The notes beneath the pieces are model-generated. The model had not been told where the DNA came from, did not search any database, and saw nothing but the letters and a program-made list of their open reading frames with translations. The translations under genes were made by a program, and so were the position numbers. A DNA stretch of 38,955 nucleotides from a bacterium (lineage in GTDB: Bacteria > Sumerlaeota > Sumerlaeia > MVZB01), in contig JAMCWS010000349.1 of the NCBI GenBank assembly GCA_023480605.1, forward strand, positions 6,132-45,086, written 5' to 3'. This document shows, piece by piece, positions 196-32,368 of this stretch. The stretch's first letter is position 1. Each line of letters starts with the position of its first letter.

Positions 196-1230
196 TCAAA
201 CGCGGCCGCCGATGCGGTCCCATTCCTCGAAGATCGCCGTGGCATTGGCGATCACCGCCCCCGCGCCCAACTCGAAGTTGGCGATGATGCCGCCGCGCGG
301 ATCGTAGAGGTGACGGGCGACCTGACGCACGGCCGCGCGCGCCACTTCCGGGTCGGGCGAGGTGAGCACGTGCTGCCGGTCGATCTCGCCCCGGAAGGTG
401 ATGCGGCCCTTGACTCGGCGCGCCAGGTCGGCCATGTCCATGCAGAACAATTGCGAGTTCATGGCGTCGACGCCGACTTCCACGAGGTCTTCGTAGATCG
501 GCGTGATGAAGCCGTCGCTGTGCATGAATGCGAACTTGCCCGCGTCGTGGATCAGGTCGACGTAATCGCGGTAGAGGGGCTTGAAGAGCGCGCGCCAGAG
601 GACCGGGTCGATGAGCAAGCGGTCCTGCGCGCCCCAGTCATCCATGAAATTGATCGCGTCGACGTCGGTCGTGATCCAGAATTCCAGTTCGCGCAGGTAG
701 AACTCGTGGATTTTGCGCAGCATCGCGCCGGCCCCTTCCTCCGGAGCGAGGATGTCCATCAGCGCGCCGGCCGAGCCGCGCAGAAACTGGAACCGCTCCC
801 ACGGGCGCGGGCAGCACGCGGCCAGCACGAATCGGTTCTGAGAGGCGCAAAAGCGGTTGACCGTATCGCGCGCGGCGTCGACGTCCGCCGGAAGGATTTC
901 ATAAGGCGGCCGGCAGGCCGCAAGGTCGGCCGAGTCGGCGACGACCGGTTCCTTCACCTCGCCGTGCACGCCTTCCTGAACGTTATGAAAACGGCAGCCC
1001 CATTCGTCGACGGCCGTGCCGAGACGATACGGATCGCCCTTGGCGCGCGGCGATGGGCGATAGGGACACGGCGCGCCGACGATGTCGTTGGGGAACCGGC
1101 GCTGAACCGCCTCGATCTCGGCGCGATAGTGATTGAGCGCCCAGGGGAGCATGCCCATCTGGCGGGGCACACGCGCGGGCGTCTGGAAGGTCAGGCAGCG
1201 CTGAACGAGTTCACGGGGAGTTTGAACCAT
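196..1230 (-). CDS. Uroporphyrinogen decarboxylase (URO-D) family protein; the substrate is probably not uroporphyrinogen
   Basis: 344-aa ORF with high GC3 and a GGAGGA about 11 nt upstream of the ATG. The overall pattern (..FMHSDGFITPIYEDLVEVGVDAMN.., ..RGGIIANFELG..) recalls URO-D/MtaA-like TIM barrels. The assignment was made by eye only. Confidence 0.55.
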   Translation of the reverse strand: MVQTPRELVQRCLTFQTPARVPRQMGMLPWALNHYRAEIEAVQRRFPNDIVGAPCPYRPSPRAKGDPYRLGTAVDEWGCRFHNVQEGVHGEVKEPVVADSADLAACRPPYEILPADVDAARDTVNRFCASQNRFVLAACCPRPWERFQFLRGSAGALMDILAPEEGAGAMLRKIHEFYLRELEFWITTDVDAINFMDDWGAQDRLLIDPVLWRALFKPLYRDYVDLIHDAGKFAFMHSDGFITPIYEDLVEVGVDAMNSQLFCMDMADLARRVKGRITFRGEIDRQHVLTSPDPEVARAAVRQVARHLYDPRGGIIANFELGAGAVIANATAIFEEWDRIGGRV

Positions 1231-20725: not shown

Positions 20726-23137
20726 TCACCGCTCAATCATCGCGACGCCGGCCGAATAAGCCGGCAGGCTGAAGCGGATGCGCGGTCCGTCGATGGTGAT
20801 CGGTACGTTTTCGGGTCGAACCGCATCGGGCGTGTCTAGCGTATTGCGCGCCGCGACCGAGCCGGGCGCGATCAGTTGCAGCCGGACCGACAACGGCCGG
20901 AAGCCCCCACGCAATCTCAGCGCCAGATCGACGTCCGAACCGCCGGGGTTTACGGCTTTGACCACGACCCTATTACCATCCTCGGTGCGGGTGGCGACGA
21001 TGTTGAGCGGTCCCGCGTTTCCCTCCAGCGCGATCCGCTCGGGGGCATAGTGATCGTGCCAGAGCTTCATGACGACATAATTGGGTGCCGGGAACCAACT
21101 TTTTTGATCGAAGTTGATGAAGGCATTATCCCATGCCGAAGCCGAAATATGGCGCAGGAAGAGAGCGGGCGAGGCCATCCCCACGAAGGTGCCGCAACGC
21201 TCGAAGCCATTGAGCAGTCCACCGCAATAAAGTCCTGTCCGCCAGTCGGTGCTCTGGGCGTTCCACTCCGAGACGAAAATTTTCAAGTTAGGGTTGGGCG
21301 AGTTTTTGATCTGGTTCTCGATGGTCGTGAGAAAGGCCTCGTAGCGGCGCGGATCTTCGGCATACTGGTCAGGATCTTCATAATGATGAATGCTATAATA
21401 GTCGGCCAGCGTCGCGCACTCGGGAATCACCACCCGATTCCAGCCGCCGATTTTGGGGCTATTGTCGTAATCGGCACACCCGCAGATGGCGATCTTGATT
21501 GTCGGATCGACTGCCTTGAGTGCGGGCACGAATTCCCTGACGATTCGGCAGTATTCTGACGCTCCTACCGGCCAGGTCTCATTGTCGATTTCCCAATACT
21601 TGACCCCGTACGGTTCGGGGTGGCCGTTCAGCGCCCTTACCTTGCCCCAGGTGGACTCTATCGGCCCATTGCAGTATTCCAACCATTGGCAGGCATCGCG
21701 AATGTATTTGCTTCGCGGCGTCGCCGGATCGTGCCGGCCAGTATTAATGACAATGAGCGGATCTGCCTTCAGGCGCCGGCACAGGGCGATGAATTCATCG
21801 GTTCCGAATGAGTTTACATCCTGGTCGTCCCAGATCACGATGGGGGATCTGACGCGCTTGGACTGGGGGCCTATGCCTTCTTTCCAGCGATAGCGTTCGG
21901 CGTAAGCTCCCCCAGGCCAGCGAATGACTGGAGGCCGCAAACCGGCAACCGCTGATATAAGGTCTGGACGGAAGCCTCCGTCGCGTCGCACCGACTCGGC
22001 CATAAGGCTCACTTGATCGATCCAAACGCGGCCTGCGCCCACCAGTTCAATCGCGAGTCTCGCATCAGGGGTGTCGGAATCAGCGGTCAGGCGAATGGGG
22101 TATTCCATCCATTCCGCGGCGTCGATCGGCGCCGGCAACATGCATACCGCAAGCGACTTCTCACCTTCCAGGAGCCGCACGCGAATCCCCGGCCGCGCTT
22201 TGCCCCGCACCCAGACCGAGCCGACATAGGTTTCGCCCTTGCGCACTTGGATCGGCCCTTCGGCGATACCCGTTGCGGCGCTTGCCGGCGCAAGGGCGTC
22301 GATTCGTGCGCAGATCGCGCCATTGAGTGGGTTTTCCTTGCTGCGCTGGCAGGTGCCGGGTCCGTAGGCCCGCCATCGATTCGGCTCCGGTTTGGCGGCA
22401 GGAACTTTCGGAAGCCCTTCAAATAAAACGCGGCCATCCAAAGCCGTTACACGCAGATTTCGGAAACTGGCCGTGGTTCCCCAAGTGCCGATGCCCACGC
22501 CTCCCGCCAAGACGGGATCATCTATATCGGTGAAGTCAATCGTTGGCTGGTCATTAATATGGATTTGGATATGTGAACCCTCACACCGTACCCTGATCCG
22601 ATACCACCGCTCAGCCTGGACGGATTGAACAGCCGCCGACCTGCATCTCTGGACATAATTCTCACCTTTCACTCCTGCGCGCATCAGGCCGCCCCACCCG
22701 CCGGTGTTATACCAGTAGAAGCGCTTGGTATCATGTCGGCGGAAAATAATCAGGAGGCAATCTTGGCCATCGTCTTGACGGGTCTCGAGTGTATACTCAT
22801 AGTCAGTCCAGGTGGGATCGCCAAATGACTGACAAAGCCGGATTCCAAGGCTCTGCTGACGCAGGACATTCCCCTCGGCGACCCAGTGACCGCCGGCACC
22901 GCCCAAATACTGGGATAGATTCTCGAAACTGCGGTCGAAGACCAGTTCGCCCCACAGGCCGCCGTTGGCAGAGCGGTAAATGTGTTCGAGGAAATGGCCG
23001 TAGATTTTCGGATCGATCTGGTTGAGCACGATTTGCGGATCGACTGAAAGAGATATTTCGGCGGCCGTCGTTCCCGCCAGTTGAGTCGTCATCAGGATGC
23101 CTTCCAGAATCAACCAGCGGATGGATCGCGCCCTCAT
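20726..23137 (-). CDS. Alpha-L-arabinofuranosidase (GH51) with inserted DUF1080/LamG-like and CBM4_9-like beta-sandwich domains
   Basis: IYGHFLEHIYRSANGGLWGEL, IRWPGGAYAERYRWKEGIGP and YWEIDNETW are GH51 signatures. The start was moved to ATG 23137 because GGAGGA lies 5 nt upstream; the track start is 23158. The N-terminus is signal-like. Confidence 0.8.
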   Translation of the reverse strand: MRARSIRWLILEGILMTTQLAGTTAAEISLSVDPQIVLNQIDPKIYGHFLEHIYRSANGGLWGELVFDRSFENLSQYLGGAGGHWVAEGNVLRQQSLGIRLCQSFGDPTWTDYEYTLETRQDDGQDCLLIIFRRHDTKRFYWYNTGGWGGLMRAGVKGENYVQRCRSAAVQSVQAERWYRIRVRCEGSHIQIHINDQPTIDFTDIDDPVLAGGVGIGTWGTTASFRNLRVTALDGRVLFEGLPKVPAAKPEPNRWRAYGPGTCQRSKENPLNGAICARIDALAPASAATGIAEGPIQVRKGETYVGSVWVRGKARPGIRVRLLEGEKSLAVCMLPAPIDAAEWMEYPIRLTADSDTPDARLAIELVGAGRVWIDQVSLMAESVRRDGGFRPDLISAVAGLRPPVIRWPGGAYAERYRWKEGIGPQSKRVRSPIVIWDDQDVNSFGTDEFIALCRRLKADPLIVINTGRHDPATPRSKYIRDACQWLEYCNGPIESTWGKVRALNGHPEPYGVKYWEIDNETWPVGASEYCRIVREFVPALKAVDPTIKIAICGCADYDNSPKIGGWNRVVIPECATLADYYSIHHYEDPDQYAEDPRRYEAFLTTIENQIKNSPNPNLKIFVSEWNAQSTDWRTGLYCGGLLNGFERCGTFVGMASPALFLRHISASAWDNAFINFDQKSWFPAPNYVVMKLWHDHYAPERIALEGNAGPLNIVATRTEDGNRVVVKAVNPGGSDVDLALRLRGGFRPLSVRLQLIAPGSVAARNTLDTPDAVRPENVPITIDGPRIRFSLPAYSAGVAMIER

Positions 23138-23844
23138 CGTAGTCCTCCATCTTGTCATGGGGTCATCCTAATTCCACCCAAAGCTTCACTCAATGTACAT
23201 TCGGCGTCGCTCGATACTTGACAGAGCGTCAGATGGCCGCGCAGGCATCTTACCCGCGCCTTGGTTTCGACCATGGCGATTCTCATCACTCGTGGGGCGA
23301 CCGCACCTCGGATTGACCGACTTCACTTCGCCGGGAGTTCAACCCGCACGGGAATGAATTGAGCGCCTTTCCTACCGCTTGCACACACACAGCCCGTCTT
23401 CACGGCGCCGGCGACAGGCCCTCCCAGCGCACGAGCCAACGGCCGCCCTCGGGGGAACCCGGGGGCGGGGCGGTCGGGCGCGCTAACCCAGCCGGTCGCC
23501 ATCATCGCCGCGGCGTAGAGCAGGCCGCCGTTGGACGGGAAATAGGGGAAAGGGCCGCCCGTGCTGCAGCCGTTGGCCAGAAACCGGTTGCGCGGCGAGT
23601 CCTAGAGGATCGCGTTTGTGGTCACTGCTGGTTGGCCGCTGCCGTGGGTGCGGAGTTCGTCGGCTCGTGCGACGGAATGGGAAAAACTCGCCCTCGTCCA
23701 GGTCCCCGATGTCGATCCCGCCGGGCATGGGGCCGATCTTGACCTTTCATGCTGGCGCGGCGCTTCGGCGGATTCGTCTTTCCAATTCGATAGTCCCGAT
23801 CCAACATGACAAGCCGGATGAATCACGATGGGCCATTGCCGGAA

Positions 23845-23874
23845 GCCGAATCGAAAGCCAATGAACGATTCGGC
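23845..23874. promoter_or_regulatory. Perfect 9-bp inverted repeat (gccgaatcg N12 cgattcggc) 37-66 nt upstream of the sigma-factor start; candidate operator or 5' hairpin
   Basis: Read directly: gccgaatcg at 23845-23853 and cgattcggc at 23866-23874. Its function is unknown. Confidence 0.3.
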
Positions 23875-23910
23875 CGGCGGCGGTGTCATGGATTGTAGAG
23901 GGAGTCACGC

Positions 23911-24513
23911 GTGCGATTCGACGACGAGTTGATGCGCCAGATCATGGAACGGGCTTCGGCGGCGACGGACGCTTTCGAGACGCTTTTTCGCCGCCATGGC
24001 GAAATGATTCGCCGTTTCGTGCGCCGCATCGTACGGGATTCGGACGCGGCCGAGGACGTGGCTCAGGAGGTGTTTCTGCGCGTCTGGACGCGCGCCGAGC
24101 AATGGCAGGGGCGCGGTCCGGTCAAGGCGTGGCTCTACCGGGTCGCCCAGAATCTGGCTCTCAACAGCATGCGTTCAGCCCGGCGCCACCGGTGCGAGTC
24201 GCTGGACAGGGCCGCCGAGGCGGCGCTGGATGACGACGACGTTCCGCAGGGTTGGCTCGTCGACGCCGCGGCGCTGGGACCCCACGAGGTTGCCGCAGAG
24301 GCCGAGCGCTATGCCCTTGTGCGCCGACTTGTGGACAGTTTGCCCGACGACAAGCGTGAGGTCGTGCGGCTGGTGACCGACGAGGACCTGGGCGCGGCCG
24401 AGGCGGCGCGGCGGCTGGGGATTCCCGAGGGCACAGTCAAGTCGCGCTTGCATTACACAACCCGGGAACTGGCCACTAAATGGAAGGAATTGGAGAAGGG
24501 GGAATCCGAATGA
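23911..24513 (+). CDS. ECF-type (group 4) sigma-70 family RNA polymerase sigma factor
   Basis: GTG start with GAGGGAG 6 nt upstream. Region 2: AEDVAQEVFLRVW...WLYRVAQNLALNSMR. Region 4: LPDDKREVVRLVTDEDLGAAEAARRLGIPEGTVKSRLHYTTRELA. The TGA at 24511-24513 overlaps the ATG of the next ORF. Confidence 0.9.
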   Translation: MRFDDELMRQIMERASAATDAFETLFRRHGEMIRRFVRRIVRDSDAAEDVAQEVFLRVWTRAEQWQGRGPVKAWLYRVAQNLALNSMRSARRHRCESLDRAAEAALDDDDVPQGWLVDAAALGPHEVAAEAERYALVRRLVDSLPDDKREVVRLVTDEDLGAAEAARRLGIPEGTVKSRLHYTTRELATKWKELEKGESE

Positions 24514-27500
24514 ACATGGCACCCGATCTCTCGACGCCCTGGCATAGGGCTTCTTATGAGGCATTTCTGCACGAGCGGTTGCCGCAACTGCTTGGCGAGC
24601 GGCTGCCGCTGGCCAGTTACCGCGTGGAGTACATGAGCGACCGCTCGTGCCGTATCGTCCTGTCGCTCGCGATGCAAACGGGTGACGTGCCGCTCGACTT
24701 TGCCGGCCTTCCCCAACCGGATGACGAAGGGATCTTCATGATCGACGGCACGAAGCGCGTGGTCGTGCCCTTGGCGTCATCGGAGGATCTGAGCGCGGCC
24801 GAGGTCCGGTGTGTCGGAGAGCAGCTTTACAGCTTCATCGAGGCGCGCCTCGGGCAGGTTGGCGCCGACATGCCCGCCGATCCGTCATTGCTGCGGGCGC
24901 TCGTGCCTTTGGATAAGTGGTTCGCGGAATTTTTCTTAATGGGGCTCATTTATGAAGACGCAAGCGAACCAAAGGTGATCCATCCGACATCCCAGGCGCT
25001 TGACGTAACGAATTGGCTGGCGACTCAAACCCACCTGCGCCGAATCCTGATCGAGAATCCCCACTCGGTGATTCACCCCGGCCAGATGGGGCGCGCTTGC
25101 CCGTTCGAGACGCCCGAAGGCCCAAACATCGGTCGGGTGCTGTCGCTCGCATGCGGAGCAACCATCCGTAACGGCAAAATTATCGTGGTCGATGATGCGC
25201 CCGCGGCGGCCCTGGGCCTGACGGCGTCGATGGTGCCGTTCGTTGAACATGACGACGCCAATCGGCTCCTCATGGGTGTCAACATGATGCGCCAGTGGCA
25301 GGTGCCGCTCGAGCCCGAACCGGCGCTGGTTCAGACCGGCAAAGAACCGAGCGCGGCGGGGTTCTGGTGCGGCGTGAATCTCCTCACCGCCTTTGTATCC
25401 TGGGGGGGCGACACTTACGAGGATGGACTGCTCATCAGCGAGTCGTGCACGCGTCGATTCCGGTTCGAGCATCCGGTGGAGCCGGGCGACAAGCTCAGCA
25501 ATCGCCACGGACAAAAGGGCGTCATCAGCCGCATCGCCCCTGACGACGAGATGCCCCATCTGGCCGACGGAACGCCCGTGGAACTGGTCTGCAATTTCAT
25601 CGGCCTGCACTCCCGGATGATCTTCGGGCAGGTGTGCGAAGCCCTCGCCGGCCGGATCGCGCGCGCCGAGGGGACGCCCGTGGTCGCGCCGCCCTTCCAC
25701 GCGCCAAATGTGGACGAATTGCGCGAACGCCTGAGGCGCGCGGGACTGCCCGCCTCAGGCATGGAAATCCTTACGATTGGCAAAGATGGCCCGCCGCTTC
25801 AGCGGCCAAGCACCATCGGCTGGATTTACTGGGGCCGGACGGTCCACGATGTGCGCACGAAGCTCCACACCTTCGTGTCGACGCCGGGCGAAGGGCAAGA
25901 ACAAGGGGAACTTGAATACTACGCGTTGCGCGAGGCGGGCGCGTTCGAGAACGTGGCCGAATCTTTCAACACCCGTTCGGCAAGGCGTTCTGACGCCGCA
26001 ACACTCGCCGCGCGCCTGGCCGCCGGCCCGGTCGAACAGGCTCCGCCGCCGCCGCCATGGTTTGCAGACCTCATGAGCCGACTCGCCGCCGCGAGCATCA
26101 AGGCGACGCTCGATGAGGAGAAGCTGCATTTCAAGATGGCCGCGCCTTCCGAGCCGGCGCTCACGTTGGCCCGTCCGTTGCCCCACCCCTGGCTGGCGGA
26201 AATTGAAGTCGCCGCGGTCGGCGTCCGCGAGAACGACCCGTTCTACCACGCCCTGGCGCAGGCCAATGCGCGCGCCGAGCGGGCCCTGGCGTCCGGAGCG
26301 CCCGAGGTTCTCACGCACCAGACCCTCCACCAGCTTCGTAAACGCTTGACCGACTATTTCGATGGTCTGGTCCCTCACGAGATCATGCTTCCGAGTGAAA
26401 GGAATCTGTTCAGCGGCCGGTCGGTCATCATTCCGGGCGGGGATCTGACGTTTGAACAGGTCGGTCTGCCCGAGGGGATGGCGTGGGAGCTATTCGGACC
26501 GATTCTGGCGCGCGAGATGGGCGATTCGCAGGAAATCGCAAATCGGACGCCACGGGTCGCCGCAGCTCTCGACAAACTCATGGCCCGCTCGTGGGTCGTT
26601 GTCAATCGCCAGCCCTCGTTCTGGGCCGCGAGCCTGTTGGCCTTCCATCCGGTGCGCGTGCCGGGGCGGGCCATCCGACTGCATCCCCTCGCGTGCCCCT
26701 TGCTCAATGCCGACTTTGACGGCGACCCGGTTGCCGTCTTCCTGCCCATCACCGAAGCCGCCCAGCGCGAGGCCGGCGAACGGCTGAGTGTTGTGGGCCA
26801 GTTGCGCCGTGATCCGGAGCGGCTCCTGCCCTGGCTTTGCCCAACCCAAGATGCGTTGTGGGGCCTTGCCGCGCTCAGTTTCGATGCGGCCCGACGCGAC
26901 GAAATCCGCCGTTTGACAGGCGCCGATCTCATCGGCGCGGAGGGCTTCGTCACGCGCGCGTCGCTGATCGAAGGCCTTCGCGCCATTCATGAAGCCGAAG
27001 GTCCCCAGCGCGCACTTCAGGTCAGCGAGGCACTGATGCGACTCGGCATGCGCATCGCCAAAGAGAGCGGCGCTTCGTTTAGTCCCTTCTTCGGCGAGAG
27101 CGTCAGCCGCCCGCCCCTTCCCGCAATCGATCGCCGTGAGGAGTGGCTTGACACCTGCGCCGATCTGACCGAGCGAATCGCCTCACGCGTCGACTACGAC
27201 GCCGCGGACCTGGGGCCACAACTCTTGGCCGTGAAGAGCGGCGCGCGGGGCAATCTTCAGCAGCTGGTCAGCCTTCCCGGCACGCCGGGAGTCGTCATCG
27301 ACGGGGCCGGGGGCTTCGTTCCCGTGCATCGCGGCTTCGCCGAAGGGCTCCGGCCCGAGGATGCCTTCGCCCGCGTCTTCGGCGCGCGTCTGGGTTTAGC
27401 CCGGGTGCTTCTGGAACCGGCCAGCCTCTGGCATGCCTATGCCGTCGAGCATCCCGGGCCGTCGAAGGGCTTTAATGTCCTCGCGCGCGCCATGCGCGCC

Positions 27501-28097: not shown

Positions 28098-28724
28098 ATG
28101 ACGCCTGACCAGAACGGATGGGAGTTGGACGACTTTTTGCCCGCATATACGGACTTGGCCGAGCGATTCAGCCATGACGAAAACGTGCGCGCCCTCCTGA
28201 ACGAGGTGGCGCTCGAGTTGCTCGCCGCGCTGGCGCGCAACGGAAACGAGCCGGGCAGACGACAAACGCGCCGTTATTATCTCTGGCTGCTTGCCTGCAA
28301 AGGATTCACTTTTCGTGGCGCCTACTGGCGCGATGTGGATCTCGGGCAGCACCAGTGTGGCGGCAAGCGTGTGATCTGTCTGCCGTTGGATGATTTCGTG
28401 CCGCACGCCGAAGAAGACTTCAGCTTCGATCCGCGCGGACCCATCATCCACGGCATCCTCCTGCGCCAAGCCTTCGGAATCCTCAACGAACACGAGCAGG
28501 ATCTCCTGACCAGCCGCATCATCGAAGGCCAGACGCTTCAGTAAATCGCCGACCGGCTCAACATCACCCCGCAAGGCGTCAAGAAACGCCTCGATCGACT
28601 CTATGCGCGGATGCGGCGTTACCTGAAGCCGTCAGGTTCGCAATTGAAAAACTACTCCCACTCTCATGTGATAAAAACGAGAAATGGAGAACGCGCCTGT
28701 GAAAAGCACGGTGAATCTACTTGA
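28098..28724 (+). pseudogene. Divergent sigma-70/ECF-like factor interrupted by an in-frame TAA (28542-28544) inside the region-4 helix-turn-helix
   Basis: ..LNEHEQDLLTSRIIEGQTLQ[TAA]IADRLNITPQGVKKRLDRLYARMRRYL.. reads as a complete sigma region 4 only when the TAA is read through in the same frame. The next stop is TGA 28722-28724. Confidence 0.6.
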
Positions 28725-29442
28725 GATCTATTGGAAAACAAGCAGTATTCGCCCGTCACGAACACGCTCTCAGCATTTCGCCTGTTCGAGATCGGGAATT
28801 ATCTGGAACTGAAGACGGGCCAGACGGTGATCGATTGTGGATGCGGCCACGGCTAAGCGTTTTGCCTCTGGGCGTAGTACTTCGGTACGTCGGGAGTTGG
28901 CGTTGATCACTCGGCGGGCGCAATCGCCAATGCCACCGCACTGGCCGAACGTGACGGCCTGAGCGACAAGTTGCAATTCGTGCACGCAAACGTGCGAGAG
29001 TACGAGATGGGGAAGAGCCGCTATAGTGTGGCGTCCTGCCTGGGTGCGACAATGTGCTTCGGAGGTCTCGAGCCGACCCTGCGTGAGTTGAAGAAGATAA
29101 TCACGCCCGGCGGCCAGATCGTCATCGGCGAGGCCATATACACAACCCACAAGGTCCCGGATGAGCTAAGGGATTATGAAGGCAATTGCCCCGACCGAGA
29201 TGAAGCTCTGCAACATGGTCAGAGCCGCGGGTTGTGAAGTGGGGTATTACTCTCGATCGTCGCGGGACGAATGGGAACGATACATATTCAACAGCAACCA
29301 GACCAGAAAAGAATTTTTGAATATGCCATACGGCCCGGAGCGTGAAGAGAAAAGACTGAAGGAGCAACGGTGGCAGAACATGTATCTGAGCTATCGACAG
29401 GATTGGCAGGCAATGGCCTTCATGACAATTCATCCGACGTAA
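28685..29442 (+). pseudogene. Class I SAM-dependent methyltransferase, disrupted by in-frame TAA (28854-28856), in-frame TAG (28875-28877) and at least one frameshift near 29165-29180
   Basis: ..LELKTGQTVIDCGCGHG[TAA]AFCLWA[TAG]YFGTSGVGVDHSAGAIANATALAERDGLSDKLQFVHANV..ITPGGQIVIGEAIY.. continues in another frame as ..APTEMKLCNMVRAAGCEVGYYSRSSRDEWERY..YRQDWQAMAFMTIHPT. The 5' end is uncertain; ATG 28685 is in yet another frame. Confidence 0.65.
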
Positions 29443-29685
29443 TTCATGAGGGAATGAGTGTCTGTCCCCGAAATCCCCGAAATCCCCGGTCGACTCCGCT
29501 TCGATCCGCCAGCCGTCCAGGCGTTCGAAATCCACCAGGGGCGGGTGGTCGTCGGCCTTCCGCCCTGCCCAGTCCAGTTCGTAGGGCCTCGCGCTGGCGA
29601 CCGTCGGCCTCTGACCGAAACCCGGCGCCGGCCACGTCAGGCCCAGGATCCCGGCCGCCGCGAGACACAATATACGTTGCATCAT
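29122..29685 (-). pseudogene. 5' fragment of a secreted-protein gene (signal peptide plus about 40 aa); the rest of the ORF runs antisense through the methyltransferase remnant
   Basis: A strong SD (GGGGGAGGAG) lies 5 nt upstream of ATGATG at 29685. MMQRILCLAAAGILGLTWPAPGFG is signal-like. ..RPYELDWAGRKADDHPPLVDFERLDGWRIEA looks like the start of a larger exported protein. After about 29490 the reading frame is the complement of another gene. Confidence 0.45.
29466..29488. repeat. 9-bp tandem repeat, ccccgaaat x2.5
   Basis: Read directly: ccccgaaat ccccgaaat ccccg. It sits 24 nt after the methyltransferase stop, at the point where the opposite-strand secreted-protein ORF loses recognisable sequence. 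Confidence 0.9.
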
Positions 29686-29747
29686 TGCGCTCCTCCCCCG
29701 CTTGGCCTTCGAGTTCCGAGCGGCGTTGCGCGCCCGGCCATCGCGAG

Positions 29748-30215
29748 TCATCGGGCGTGCCTGATCAACCAGACTTCGGCGACCCCGCAGTGGGCTTCGC
29801 CCTCGGCGGCGCGCCACTCCAGCACCAGTCGGCCCCCGGCCGTGACCTCGCGCGGAATCGCTGATTCTTGAATCGGAAGATTGAGCGATTGGATGCGGTC
29901 GCTCACCAAAAACCGATCATTGGCGACCAGGCGCATTCGGCCGGGCCTACCGGCGGCGATCTCGGCCGTATACGCCGCCCGAACCGAATAGGCCGCGTGG
30001 GGATCGAGGTTGCCGTAAGCGATGCGCAGCGGGCTAATTCCAGTTCGCTTCGCGATCTCTTCGAGCAGGACCGTCGCCGCTTTCTCATCGACGCGCCCGG
30101 GTTGCGCCGGCGTGACGAGAACCGGAGCGGAAAAGTCGAGCAGGCGCGGAACGGCGCTCTCGGCCGCCTCGGGTCGCCCACCCGCGCCTCGCCGCTTCCC
30201 CCCATGCCGTGACAC
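29748..30215 (-). CDS. Hypothetical protein (155 aa, GTG start in the track); possibly an N-terminal-domain fragment of a glycosidase-like protein
   Basis: GC3 is high on this strand. ..VLVTPAQPGRVDEKAATVLLEEIAKRTGI.. resembles N-terminal segments of some large carbohydrate-active proteins. No clear RBS or start. Confidence 0.35.
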   Translation of the reverse strand: MSRHGGKRRGAGGRPEAAESAVPRLLDFSAPVLVTPAQPGRVDEKAATVLLEEIAKRTGISPLRIAYGNLDPHAAYSVRAAYTAEIAAGRPGRMRLVANDRFLVSDRIQSLNLPIQESAIPREVTAGGRLVLEWRAAEGEAHCGVAEVWLIRHAR

Positions 30216-30349: not shown

Positions 30350-32368
30350 TCATTCGTAATCCAGCCATTCGCGCGAAGCGCTCTGCGTCGTCAGGTAGAC
30401 GGGCGTATTGAGAACGAGCGAGACGACCCGGCGGCGGACGACGTTCGGGCCGGCCGTATAGCCGAACGTGTAAGTGATCGAGCCATCGGGGACGAGGGTC
30501 GCGTAGATCGCCCCGGCGGGCAGCACGGCGAGTGGTGAAATACCGCCGTCGCCGCCGAATTCAACGCGGCGCGTGAACCCGCCAAGCTGGAGAGGCTGCG
30601 CGTAATCGCGATCGCCGACGCCAAGGGTCGGCAAGGCCAGGTCGCCGCCCGATATGTTGATGTAAAATAACACGCTGAAACCCGGGTAAGTATCGGACAA
30701 TCCCGCCGGGCCGACGCTGCGGCGCACCAGCGCGACCGTTGCCCCGCTTGGGGCGGTGCTGGTGATGGCGGCGAACTCGGGCGAGGCCGCCGTGTAACCA
30801 TCGAGCAGACCGAAGGCCTCCGGTCCGCCCGCGAGTGCCACGATGTAGGGCGTTTCTCCGCCGTCGGCCAGGAAGGGATTGCGAATGCGGCTGCCATAGA
30901 CTGGGGTCATCGTCACGCCGGTCGTTGAGCCGTCATATGACTGGACGGTGCTTGAGCCGAAAAGAAACCGGCCGATGCCGCCATTCGGCGTCCCGCCAGA
31001 GACGTCGATCCCGCAGCCGGCGCTGGTGATCGTGGTGGCGGCCAGTTTGATGGCGCCCCCGCCGCCGCCCCCGCCGCCGCCGCCACCACCGCCTTTGCCG
31101 CCCGCCGCGCCGTCGCCGCCATTGCCGCCGGCCCCGCCGTGACCGCCGGACCCGCTGGAGCCGTCTCCGGGTTTGCCGGAGGCGCCGACGGTGCCTGGCG
31201 CCCCCGCGATTCCCATAGAGCCGTCTTTGCCCGGCTCGCCCGATTCTCCGGCGTCGCCCCTGGCAAGAAGGTGCGCCGCCACGGTCATGCGGCCGCAAAC
31301 GATAATTTCAAGCGCCCCGCCACCGGCGCCGCCGGCGCCGGCGATCCCGCCGATGCCGCCGTCGCCTCCCAGATCGCCGTTGCCGCCGTCACCCCCGGCG
31401 CCCCCGGCGCCCCCGGCGCCCGTAAAGCCACTGCCGCCCCCGCCGCCACCCCCGCCGCCGCCGGCGCCGTTGCCGCCATAACCCCCGCCACCCCCGCCGC
31501 CGCCGCCCGAACCGCCGCTGCCGCCGCCACCGCCGGAGATCGTATCGCCGGTGCCGGTGTTGATGCCCGGAGTACCCTGCTGACCATTTGTCCCGCCTTT
31601 GCCGGGCGAGCCGTTCTGACCATCACCCCCTTTGCCGCCGCTGCCGCCATTGGTTCCGGCGAAGAAGACATACGCGCCGCCGCCGCCGCCACTGCCGCCC
31701 TGGCCATGTACGCCGGAGTCTCCCGCCGCGCCGCCGGCGGGTCGACTCACGAGGGACGAACCGCCACTCCCGGGGGAATTGACGCCGTCCTGTCCCGGAT
31801 CACCGAGGAAACCATCGACGCCATCACCGGCCGCGATTTGCGCCTCTGCCGTCGCCAACGCGCCTATCTGGCCGGATGTGCCGTTGGCGGCGGTAACGCC
31901 GTGGCCACCGGCGCCCCCGATTGAGATGTCTACGGTGTAAATATAGCCGCCGAATCCTATTGAGCCGTACTGGCCATGGATTCCCCCGGCGCCGCCGCCG
32001 GGACCGGGAATGGGCCCGTTGGCCGAAGCGTCGAAAACGACGCCGGCCGGGATGGTGGCTTGGCCCCCGACAAAGAGCGACACGGGACGCGAACCCATGA
32101 GCGTTACGGTGTCGGTGGCCGCCAGCGATAAGTCTCCGGCGATGTAAAAGCGGGCGATATTGTCTTCGACGCGCGCCTTGAACGGCACGCCGTTGAACGT
32201 CGCCGGATTGCTGTCGGTATCGCCCGTAATCGTCAGGTCGGTTGAGTTGATGACGATATCGGCGCCCGCGACTCGGGAAGGCGCACCGAACCCGGCGATG
32301 GTTGCGAGGGCGACCAAACCCCAGCGCAGCGGGATCGTGCATTGGACAAGGTTGGTTCTGTTGATCAT
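30350..32368 (-). CDS. Secreted glycine-rich repeat protein with collagen-like (G-X-Y) and PGRS-like (GGxGG) tracts
   Basis: 672 aa with GGGGGAA 8 nt upstream of the ATG and the signal-like string LRWGLVALATIAGFGAPSRVAG. The central roughly 315 aa are dominated by Gly, e.g. GEPGKDGSMGIAGAPGTVGASGKPGDG and GGAGGAGGDGGNGDLGGDGGIGG. The N- and C-terminal domains are non-repetitive. Confidence 0.75.
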   Translation of the reverse strand: MINRTNLVQCTIPLRWGLVALATIAGFGAPSRVAGADIVINSTDLTITGDTDSNPATFNGVPFKARVEDNIARFYIAGDLSLAATDTVTLMGSRPVSLFVGGQATIPAGVVFDASANGPIPGPGGGAGGIHGQYGSIGFGGYIYTVDISIGGAGGHGVTAANGTSGQIGALATAEAQIAAGDGVDGFLGDPGQDGVNSPGSGGSSLVSRPAGGAAGDSGVHGQGGSGGGGGAYVFFAGTNGGSGGKGGDGQNGSPGKGGTNGQQGTPGINTGTGDTISGGGGGSGGSGGGGGGGGGYGGNGAGGGGGGGGGGSGFTGAGGAGGAGGDGGNGDLGGDGGIGGIAGAGGAGGGALEIIVCGRMTVAAHLLARGDAGESGEPGKDGSMGIAGAPGTVGASGKPGDGSSGSGGHGGAGGNGGDGAAGGKGGGGGGGGGGGGGAIKLAATTITSAGCGIDVSGGTPNGGIGRFLFGSSTVQSYDGSTTGVTMTPVYGSRIRNPFLADGGETPYIVALAGGPEAFGLLDGYTAASPEFAAITSTAPSGATVALVRRSVGPAGLSDTYPGFSVLFYINISGGDLALPTLGVGDRDYAQPLQLGGFTRRVEFGGDGGISPLAVLPAGAIYATLVPDGSITYTFGYTAGPNVVRRRVVSLVLNTPVYLTTQSASREWLDYE
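31058..32008 (-). repeat. Low-complexity GGN-codon repeat region encoding the Gly-rich core
   Basis: Long runs of gcc/gcc/ccc on the + strand, e.g. 31040-31140 and 31300-31530. The + strand mirror frames give poly-Pro and poly-Ala ORFs. Confidence 0.85.

Follow-up and report, generated by a model that had tools for sequence, protein, structure and literature searches.

The element described here is a two-gene cassette in a 38,955-nucleotide (nt) stretch of a Sumerlaeota genome (contig JAMCWS010000349.1 of assembly GCA_023480605.1; this whole stretch is called the window below). A gene for a sigma factor of the extracytoplasmic function (ECF) type is followed directly, on the same strand, by a gene for a single-chain mini RNA polymerase in which beta-like and beta'-like parts are fused and much reduced. 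A dedicated two-gene sigma-polymerase module is well supported by the comparison of related loci, and the fuller reading preferred here, that the locus is a self-contained, positively autoregulated transcription module, is held with about even confidence. According to this reading, a promoter of the form TGAAC-N16-GTGTC would give one short-leader mRNA coding first for the two-domain sigma and then for the tightly or translationally coupled 1030-amino-acid polymerase, which would be a bacterial beta-beta' core pared to its catalytic centre. The sigma would recognise the cassette's own promoter, and presumably other promoters elsewhere in the genome; its region 2 would dock onto the retained clamp helices of the mini-polymerase, and the two proteins would act as a minimal holoenzyme with promoter-specific transcription of its own, beside the host polymerase.

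Linkage of the two genes across bacterial lineages

Relatives of the mini-polymerase were found in 251 of 185,579 species, each represented by one genome in the scan. Most locus counts given below rest on the best 80 loci, all from metagenome-assembled genomes (MAGs), which belong to Latescibacterota, Poribacteria, Planctomycetota, Chloroflexota, Armatimonadota, Gemmatimonadota, Hydrogenedentota and others, at least seven phyla in all. A protein search returned many proteins of 1000-1067 amino acids with 49-62% identity to the window polymerase; where a source gives a name, it is only "hypothetical protein" or a list of Pfam domains. In an exhaustive search of representatives the family proved discrete, with about 75 clusters that are full-length, 980-1101 amino acids long and 39-62% identical to the window polymerase; its nearest outside relatives, fusions of more than 2000 amino acids, score no higher than 265 bits, whereas full-length members score 600 bits or more.

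When the six-frame open reading frames (ORFs) of the loci were searched with the window sigma (phmmer), a close ortholog (1e-37 to 1e-65) was found directly upstream of the polymerase gene, on the same strand, in the window as well as in 76 of 76 genome loci that include DNA upstream of that gene. Four loci that begin inside the polymerase gene were left out of this count, and unrelated ECF sigmas in the same loci reach only 1e-11 to 1e-14. In the reverse direction, three of three sigma orthologs from other long contigs have the mini-polymerase as the next gene. Among the most divergent polymerases, three with 39-40% identity also have the sigma directly upstream, overlapping or abutting, and for a fourth (41%) the upstream ORF is truncated at the contig end. 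A sequence-only reading of the window had proposed conserved adjacency as its own test of the pairing, and homologous polymerase genes without a linked sigma as the case that would refute it; the adjacency proved universal over 39-62% identity and at least seven phyla, and no such unlinked gene occurs at any locus with readable upstream DNA. Since the adjacency is kept without exception in related loci, the pairing is not a matter of chance, and the correlation between the pairwise identities of the sigma factors and those of the polymerases (means 49% and 50%; r = 0.87, with 0 of 999 Mantel permutations as high) argues that the two genes are inherited together and at equal rates. At three loci (L018, L044 and L081) the sigma frame is in two pieces, in L081 also lying 941 nt from the polymerase gene, and at L073 it runs into the polymerase gene; these broken frames may be MAG assembly errors or decaying cassettes.

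The conserved unit comprises the two genes only. All-against-all clustering of flank ORFs from 81 loci gave no conserved third gene, the other neighbours being common to close relatives only; the 400 nt past the polymerase stop are unconserved beyond close relatives, with no downstream element or RNA, and terminator-like hairpins downstream of the polymerase gene occur at chance level. A co-transcribed anti-sigma gene is typical, though not obligatory, for ECF sigmas. No anti-sigma-like ORF adjoins the pair among ORFs of at least 50 amino acids in 23.16-29.5 kb of the window, screened for a hydrophobic 19-mer or HxxxCxxC; the single ORF that passes this screen (29125-29817, minus strand) is 1.5 kb away, its hydrophobic stretch resembles a signal peptide and other loci contain no equivalent of it. 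No Pfam anti-sigma domain was found in the flanking window ORFs tested, and the earlier statement that 23.2-29.5 kb contains no anti-sigma ORF is borne out. The gene after the polymerase is convergent in nine of nine places with database gene calls (L001 and L163-L169 among them) and, by a rough codon-usage caller, in 45 of 63 loci, a count inflated by twelve Poribacteria loci that share synteny; convergent downstream genes exceed expectation, and the cassette gives the impression of an insulated unit. In L167 (3441-11093) and L168 (242-7894) the convergent neighbour, about 150 nt away, is a canonical rpoC (1619 amino acids), which marks the mini-polymerase as an additional enzyme.

In the window the two ORFs overlap by 4 nt (ATGA), with the sigma TGA at 24511-24513 and the in-frame polymerase ATG at 24510-24512; the gene junction reads ggagaagggggaatccgaATGAacatg and positions 24480-24519 read atggaaggaattggagaagggggaatccgaATGAacatgg. 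The overlap, and the Shine-Dalgarno-like gaaggggga at 24495-24503 inside the sigma 3' end, 6 nt 5' of the polymerase ATG, lie exactly where the sequence-only reading had placed them. Other in-frame ATGs of the polymerase ORF occur at 24480 and 24516, and ATG 24510 is the likely start because the N-terminus that it gives, MNMAPDLSTPWH, agrees with the homologue consensus MxxNxxAPWHK. Overlaps of 4 nt are common in operons, so the overlap by itself says little. Over 77 sigma-polymerase pairs, the genes overlap by 4 nt in 25, by 1 nt in 7 and otherwise in 1; a gap of 0-25 nt is present in 20, one of 26-300 nt in 23 (mostly Poribacteria) and one of 941 nt in 1, the 24 longer gaps spanning 34-941 nt. 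It had been suggested that the two proteins are made in fixed stoichiometry through translational coupling. With an overlap in only 33/77 loci, this is no family-wide rule, so that of the dedicated two-gene holoenzyme first proposed, the dedicated module stands, on universal linkage and the lack of a linked anti-sigma, and the fixed stoichiometry, like the physical holoenzyme, is inferred. Many orthologs have TGGGAGGA as the ribosome-binding site for the polymerase, and the same letters code for the conserved acidic W-E-E/D tail of the sigma (sigma 3' ends of L002-L081; window 24480-24510), which places the same bases under both protein and translation-signal constraint.

Composition of the polymerase and the sigma factor

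The polymerase matches Rpb2_3, Rpb2_6 (5e-37) and Rpb1_2 (2e-19) of Pfam within one chain, and its AlphaFold2 model (predicted local distance difference test, pLDDT, 92.2; predicted template modelling score, pTM, 0.90) has its best Foldseek matches among bacterial and plastid beta and beta' chains. Its anatomy (Table 1) comes from profile alignment to Escherichia coli RpoB and RpoC, and conservation was scored over 60 sequences with about 50% mean identity. Both catalytic barrels and the bridge helix of the two-barrel RNA polymerase core are present. PFETPEGPNIG stands at residues 198-208, EHDDANR at 246-252 and the beta motif GDKxxxRHGxKG, in the form GDKLSNRHGQKG, at 326-337; most residues of all three are invariant or at least 90% conserved, and in this last motif and in NADFDGD most residues are invariant and the rest at least 90% conserved across the 60 sequences.

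The reductions are extensive. In the profile alignment, most of beta 1-450, the beta lobes and beta' 1-266 (zipper and Zn-binding region) have no counterpart, about 25 residues are deleted at the rudder, and nothing aligns past beta' ~850, with the trigger loop and jaw not detected; the chain ends about 50 residues past the bridge-helix-like helices. At the flap, 1-8 profile positions separate E. coli beta 824 from 1054 in the alignment; against chain 8i23_C the corresponding jump is between residues 794 and 930. A vestigial lid may remain ahead of the clamp helices. No alpha or omega gene is linked, and the polymerase is one ORF with no separate beta and beta' subunits. The window polymerase carries a specific insertion of about 18 amino acids (GLIYEDASEPKVIHPTS; residues ~143-160, window 24936-24989), absent from most homologues; of the two stretches where confidence in the model is low, one (pLDDT <50, residues 149-155) coincides with this insertion.

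The conservation of the catalytic centre bears on an explanation in which the mini-polymerase is an anti-sigma substitute that captures sigma on its clamp helices, or titrates host factors, with catalysis secondary or lost. The polymerase gene does stand where an anti-sigma gene would be expected, the sigma has no other linked regulator and the clamp helices are kept. Conservation of NADFDGD, of the beta lysine/arginine motif, of PFETPEGPNIG and of the bridge helix in 60 sequences would nevertheless be unexpected for a pure decoy, and a protein of 1030 amino acids would be a costly anti-sigma, which makes this explanation highly improbable.

The clamp-helix-like segment that had been proposed as the dock of the sigma is indeed retained, its two helices being modelled and aligned to the corresponding coiled coil of E. 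coli beta' (Table 1). N586, R591, P598, L601 and L609 are at least 90% conserved, and the segment has been kept though the 266 beta' residues N-terminal of it are unaligned, which counts for a holoenzyme. Sigma region 2 and the beta' coiled coil are reportedly the minimal machinery for recognition and melting of the -10 element (work attributed to Young et al., Cell 2001 and Science 2004).

The sigma factor itself matches Sigma70_r2 (3e-19, residues 25-92) and Sigma70_r4_2 (5e-11, residues 136-181), with no region 1 or region 3 match in Pfam. It scores 95.9 bits with NCBIfam TIGR02937 (cutoff 42.9) and falls below the cutoffs of all NCBIfam equivalog and subfamily models, the best being PRK12513 (114.6 bits against 206). 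Its size and two-domain make-up fit the ECF (group 4) sigma-70 family, for which about 170-220 amino acids are expected, and its orthologs form a clade at about 50-60% identity. In the family conservation profile, region 2.2 is very conserved, W115, D118 and P124 are conserved in the normally variable linker between regions 2 and 4, and the acidic tail retains W-E-E.

Table 1. Positions of the sigma-polymerase cassette and its parts in the window, with the E. coli counterparts of polymerase segments
Feature	Window position	Strand	Polymerase residues	E. coli counterpart	Basis or remark
ECF-type promoter: -35 TGAAC 23862-23866, 16-nt spacer, -10 GTGTC 23883-23887 within cGGTGTCat	23862-23887	+			Motif conserved across loci
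Shine-Dalgarno tract of sigma gene (AGAGGGAG), in conserved (A/G)GTAGAGGG leader	23898-23905	+			Sequence and alignment of upstream regions
ECF-type sigma gene, GTG start, 200 amino acids, regions 2 and 4 only	23911-24513	+			Pfam and NCBIfam matches
Shine-Dalgarno tract of polymerase gene (GGAGAAGGGGGA)	24492-24503	+			Within sigma 3' end; read from sequence
Single-chain fused beta-beta' mini RNA polymerase gene, 1030 amino acids	24510-27602	+	1-538 beta-like; ~578-1010 beta'-like		Pfam/NCBIfam, profile alignment, model
Rifampicin region and fork loop			~108-221	beta 475-581	
Link motif region (EHDDANR)			229-284	beta 653-708	
Beta barrel, first part			283-317	beta 790-824	
Flap-excision junction, RRFRFEHPV; double-psi barrel halves joined directly	25452-25478	+	~315-323	beta 825-1053 (flap and SI2) excised	Profile alignment
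Beta barrel, second part			319-412	beta 1054-1147	
Segment through end of beta			388-538	beta 1177-1342	
Clamp-helix coiled coil (counterpart of the sigma region 2 dock)	26238-26369	+	577-620	~ beta' 267-309	Model helices H577-594 and H599-620; profile alignment
Clamp helices, switch 2, NADFDGD			578-789	beta' 267-513	
Catalytic NADFDGD	26706-26726	+	733-739		D735, D737, G738 and D739 invariant in 60 sequences
F-loop and bridge helix			902-1010	beta' 720-830	
Bridge-helix-like helices (H949-968, H970-977)	27354-27440	+	949-977		Alignment to E. coli beta' 720-830; model

The promoter and the enzyme that would read it

An alignment of the 250 nt 5' of the sigma starts revealed the motif nTGAAC(C/T)TT...cGGTGTC(A/T/C)T in 69 of 74 loci, with a spacer of exactly 16 nt between GAAC and G(T/C)GTC in 65 of the 69 promoters. 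It sits 13-114 nt 5' of the sigma start, the end of the -10 element being mostly 17-23 nt before the start codon, and is followed by the (A/G)GTAGAGGG leader that holds the ribosome-binding site. The leader predicted for the window is about 15-18 nt, and at L166 (189-229) the -10 element ends just 12 nt before the sigma ATG, which would leave the mRNA nearly leaderless. The exact TGAAC-N16-GTGTC occurs once per locus in 65 loci, in 64 of them just upstream of the sigma and in L024 far upstream. For TGAAC-N16-GYGTC the window has a single exact match, with an estimated 0.1 or so expected by chance, and matches with one mismatch are at chance level (7 against 5.5 expected). The elements correspond to the ECF pattern, an AAC-containing -35 and a -10 of CGT/GTC type about 16-17 nt apart, and because the promoter is of this textbook type, the sigma very probably activates the sigma-polymerase operon itself, in positive autoregulation.

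Which core the sigma brings to this promoter is the point on which the explanations divide. The sigma may be a regulator only, which binds the host core, reads TGAAC-N16-GTGTC and turns on the operon, the mini-polymerase working without it, for example as a self-initiating enzyme or on special templates; the two neighbouring genes would then be regulator and target, and their products would form no complex. The promoter architecture is fully canonical for ECF sigmas and strict in its spacing, the sigma looks like an ordinary ECF factor with a very conserved region 2.2, and neither the flap nor the beta' N-terminus, which would be needed to hold region 4 and the linker, is left in the mini-polymerase. 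Furthermore, ECF sigma genes are often conserved beside their targets, with which the context-based ECF classification is consistent (PMC7826278), and YonO, a single-chain polymerase of a Bacillus subtilis prophage, may initiate alone, its need for a promoter-recognition factor being unknown (PMC5467207). A mere regulator would, on the other hand, hardly account for a linkage that is exceptionless across the family when all other neighbours vary, for translational coupling in many loci, for the survival of clamp helices in a drastically reduced beta' part, or for the family-specific conserved residues of the sigma linker and tail; and an autoregulated sigma that has neither an anti-sigma nor any other visible control would stay switched on if its partner did not modulate it. 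As the sole role of the sigma, regulation is rather unlikely, though it keeps appreciable weight, and the two readings are compatible, since both enzymes may be served by the sigma.

Several observations weigh against a self-contained sigma and mini-polymerase holoenzyme. Every known holoenzyme holds sigma region 4 and the sigma linker by means of the beta flap and the N-terminal region of beta'; with the flap deleted and the beta' N-terminal elements undetected, the known docks, the flap tip for region 4 and exit-channel elements for the ECF linker, appear to be gone from the mini-polymerase. The clamp-helix positions aligned to E. coli beta' R275, E295 and A302, which are presumably sigma contacts, are changed. 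The coiled coil is moderately conserved as compared with the very conserved sigma region 2.2, a difference that also fits a sigma constrained by the host core, and NusG-type factors bind clamp helices as well, so that their retention is not specific to sigma. The -35 element with its strict 16-nt spacing has a geometry that the host core polymerase could equally read, and about 1.1 Mb of flanking DNA yielded no second copy of the promoter, hence no further target. The adjacency of the genes is universal, but overlap or tight spacing is not (about 43% of the pairs overlap), and a natural sigma-polymerase fusion is absent among the roughly 75 family clusters, the longest representative having 1101 amino acids.

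The most far-reaching form of the preferred reading, a second, orthogonal two-protein transcription machine, falls somewhat short of even chances. The sigma would be held essentially by the clamp helices alone, the core would act as a sigma buffer in place of an anti-sigma, and the machine, sustained by its own promoter, would transcribe genes reserved to it without recourse to the host core.

Known relatives, mobility and the flanks of the cassette

The distribution of the cassette raises the alternative of a mobile or virus-derived cargo, or of an anti-phage defence, for example a back-up transcription when a phage blocks the host polymerase, in place of a second polymerase of housekeeping type. 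Its occurrence is patchy, in 251 of 185,579 species across many phyla at 45-60% identity, the flanks differ in every lineage, and the next gene is mostly convergent, as for an insulated insert. L001 has HEPN, GmrSD and AAA/VWA genes as neighbours and L167 an NTP-transferase/HEPN pair. Against this stand neighbours that are mostly ordinary metabolic genes, a polymerase with no PADLOC match, and a window with no integrase genes and no flanking repeats; nor is any family member present in IMG/VR viral contigs, GenBank phages or PLSDB plasmids, which hold only distant relatives or ordinary rpoB/rpoC. Mobility or defence is therefore an improbable account of the cassette. The viral relatives (L083-L162, IMG/VR) are 22-40% identical and consist of single ORFs of about 2000-2200 amino acids that span beta-like and beta'-like parts, or of gene pairs in the order beta' then beta, with no sigma of the cassette family within 8 kb. 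Only generic sigma and beta/beta' families were matched in PHROGs, and the GC difference around the cassette is mild.

Two reduced single-chain polymerases are the closest parallels. YonO of prophage SPbeta resembles the window polymerase in its single chain of about 100 kDa, its two double-psi barrels, its work beside the host polymerase and its lack of flap, zipper, rudder, lobe and trigger loop (PMC5467207). It differs in being prophage-encoded and very distant from beta/beta', with no linked sigma and with promoter recognition unknown (PMC5467207); by that description it is set apart from the window polymerase, which is chromosomal, matches the beta/beta' Pfam families at 5e-37 and 2e-19 and has an ECF sigma and a conserved promoter upstream. 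Orf6 of the yeast killer plasmid pGKL2 is likewise an Rpb2::Rpb1 fusion in the same order, 982 amino acids long, with about half of the subunits deleted, but it belongs to a eukaryotic cytoplasmic linear plasmid, derives from Rpb2/Rpb1 and has no sigma (PMC2919709).

Full-length rpoB-rpoC fusions (PRK14844 and PRK09603, about 2840-2890 amino acids), which also join beta and beta' in one chain, are the best NCBIfam matches of the window polymerase. They are, however, complete essential core subunits, and the window polymerase, with about 60% of the residues missing, scores 210 bits against cutoffs of 4632 and 5372. The non-virion RNA polymerases (nvRNAP) of jumbo phages (AR9 gp226, phiKZ) share the combination of a non-canonical beta/beta' polymerase with a specificity subunit of its own, but are multi-subunit split enzymes with only a remotely sigma-like factor and with promoters unrelated to those of ECF sigmas (PMC9209446, PMC7598289).

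From the side of the sigma, ECF sigma/anti-sigma operons offer the nearest likeness, with a two-domain sigma first and an autoregulated promoter of AAC-type -35 and GT(C)-type -10 (PMC7826278, PMC8999054). The partner in the cassette is instead a polymerase core, and the sigma has no link to an anti-sigma, a C-terminal extension, a kinase or a two-component system. A dedicated partner other than an anti-sigma is also described for ECF sigmas with dCas12f homologues in Bacteroidetes, where the host core is still used and the partner provides RNA-guided targeting, whereas the partner in the cassette is itself a polymerase (PMC13472631). The main text of the ECF classification mentions no polymerase-linked ECF group (PMC7826278), no NCBIfam model exists for the mini-polymerase family, and the searchable literature (including PMC2919709, PMC5467207, PMC7824862, PMC8195603 and PMC7826278), with subscription-only papers outside its reach, holds no description of the family. 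The components of the cassette are of known kinds; the obligatory combination of sigma and mini-core with its own conserved promoter is new.

If the preferred reading is true, the consequences reach beyond this family. In the textbook view, bacteria possess one RNA polymerase core that serves all sigma factors. A single-chain mini-core that is chromosomal, coupled to a sigma and present in at least seven phyla would constitute a second class of bacterial transcription enzyme and the smallest known sigma-dependent holoenzyme, within an ECF sigma lineage that has a polymerase, not an anti-sigma, as its obligatory partner. It would show which parts of the roughly 400-kDa core sigma-directed initiation can spare, and would make the minimal promoter-melting machinery testable in a natural enzyme. 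Synthetic biology would gain from it a compact and orthogonal transcription pair, about 3.7 kb long, that is promoter-specific and comes with a defined promoter.

The window flanks consist of glycoside hydrolase and oxidoreductase genes. The roughly 700 nt (23159-23861) that separate the sigma promoter from a divergent glycoside hydrolase gene on the minus strand (20726-23158) contain no recognisable gene, and the ORFs there have no Pfam match and look like wrong-frame artefacts of high GC. On the other side, 0.5 kb past the cassette, an ORF at 28098-28640 (plus strand) ends in a helix-turn-helix resembling sigma-70 region 4, which a TAA in the same frame interrupts at 28542-28544; with this stop ignored, Pfam Sigma70_r4 is matched at 1.6e-6. 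The ORF, unconserved in other loci, is probably what is left of a second, decayed sigma-like gene. Methyltransferase-like remnants with stops and frameshifts (weak Methyltransf_11/31 matches) follow at about 28700-29450 (plus strand), where GC falls to 0.56, and together with the broken sigma-like ORF they suggest a decaying region just past the cassette. Further downstream, at 30350-32368 on the minus strand, a 672-amino-acid ORF with no Pfam match contains very long glycine-rich GGxGG runs.

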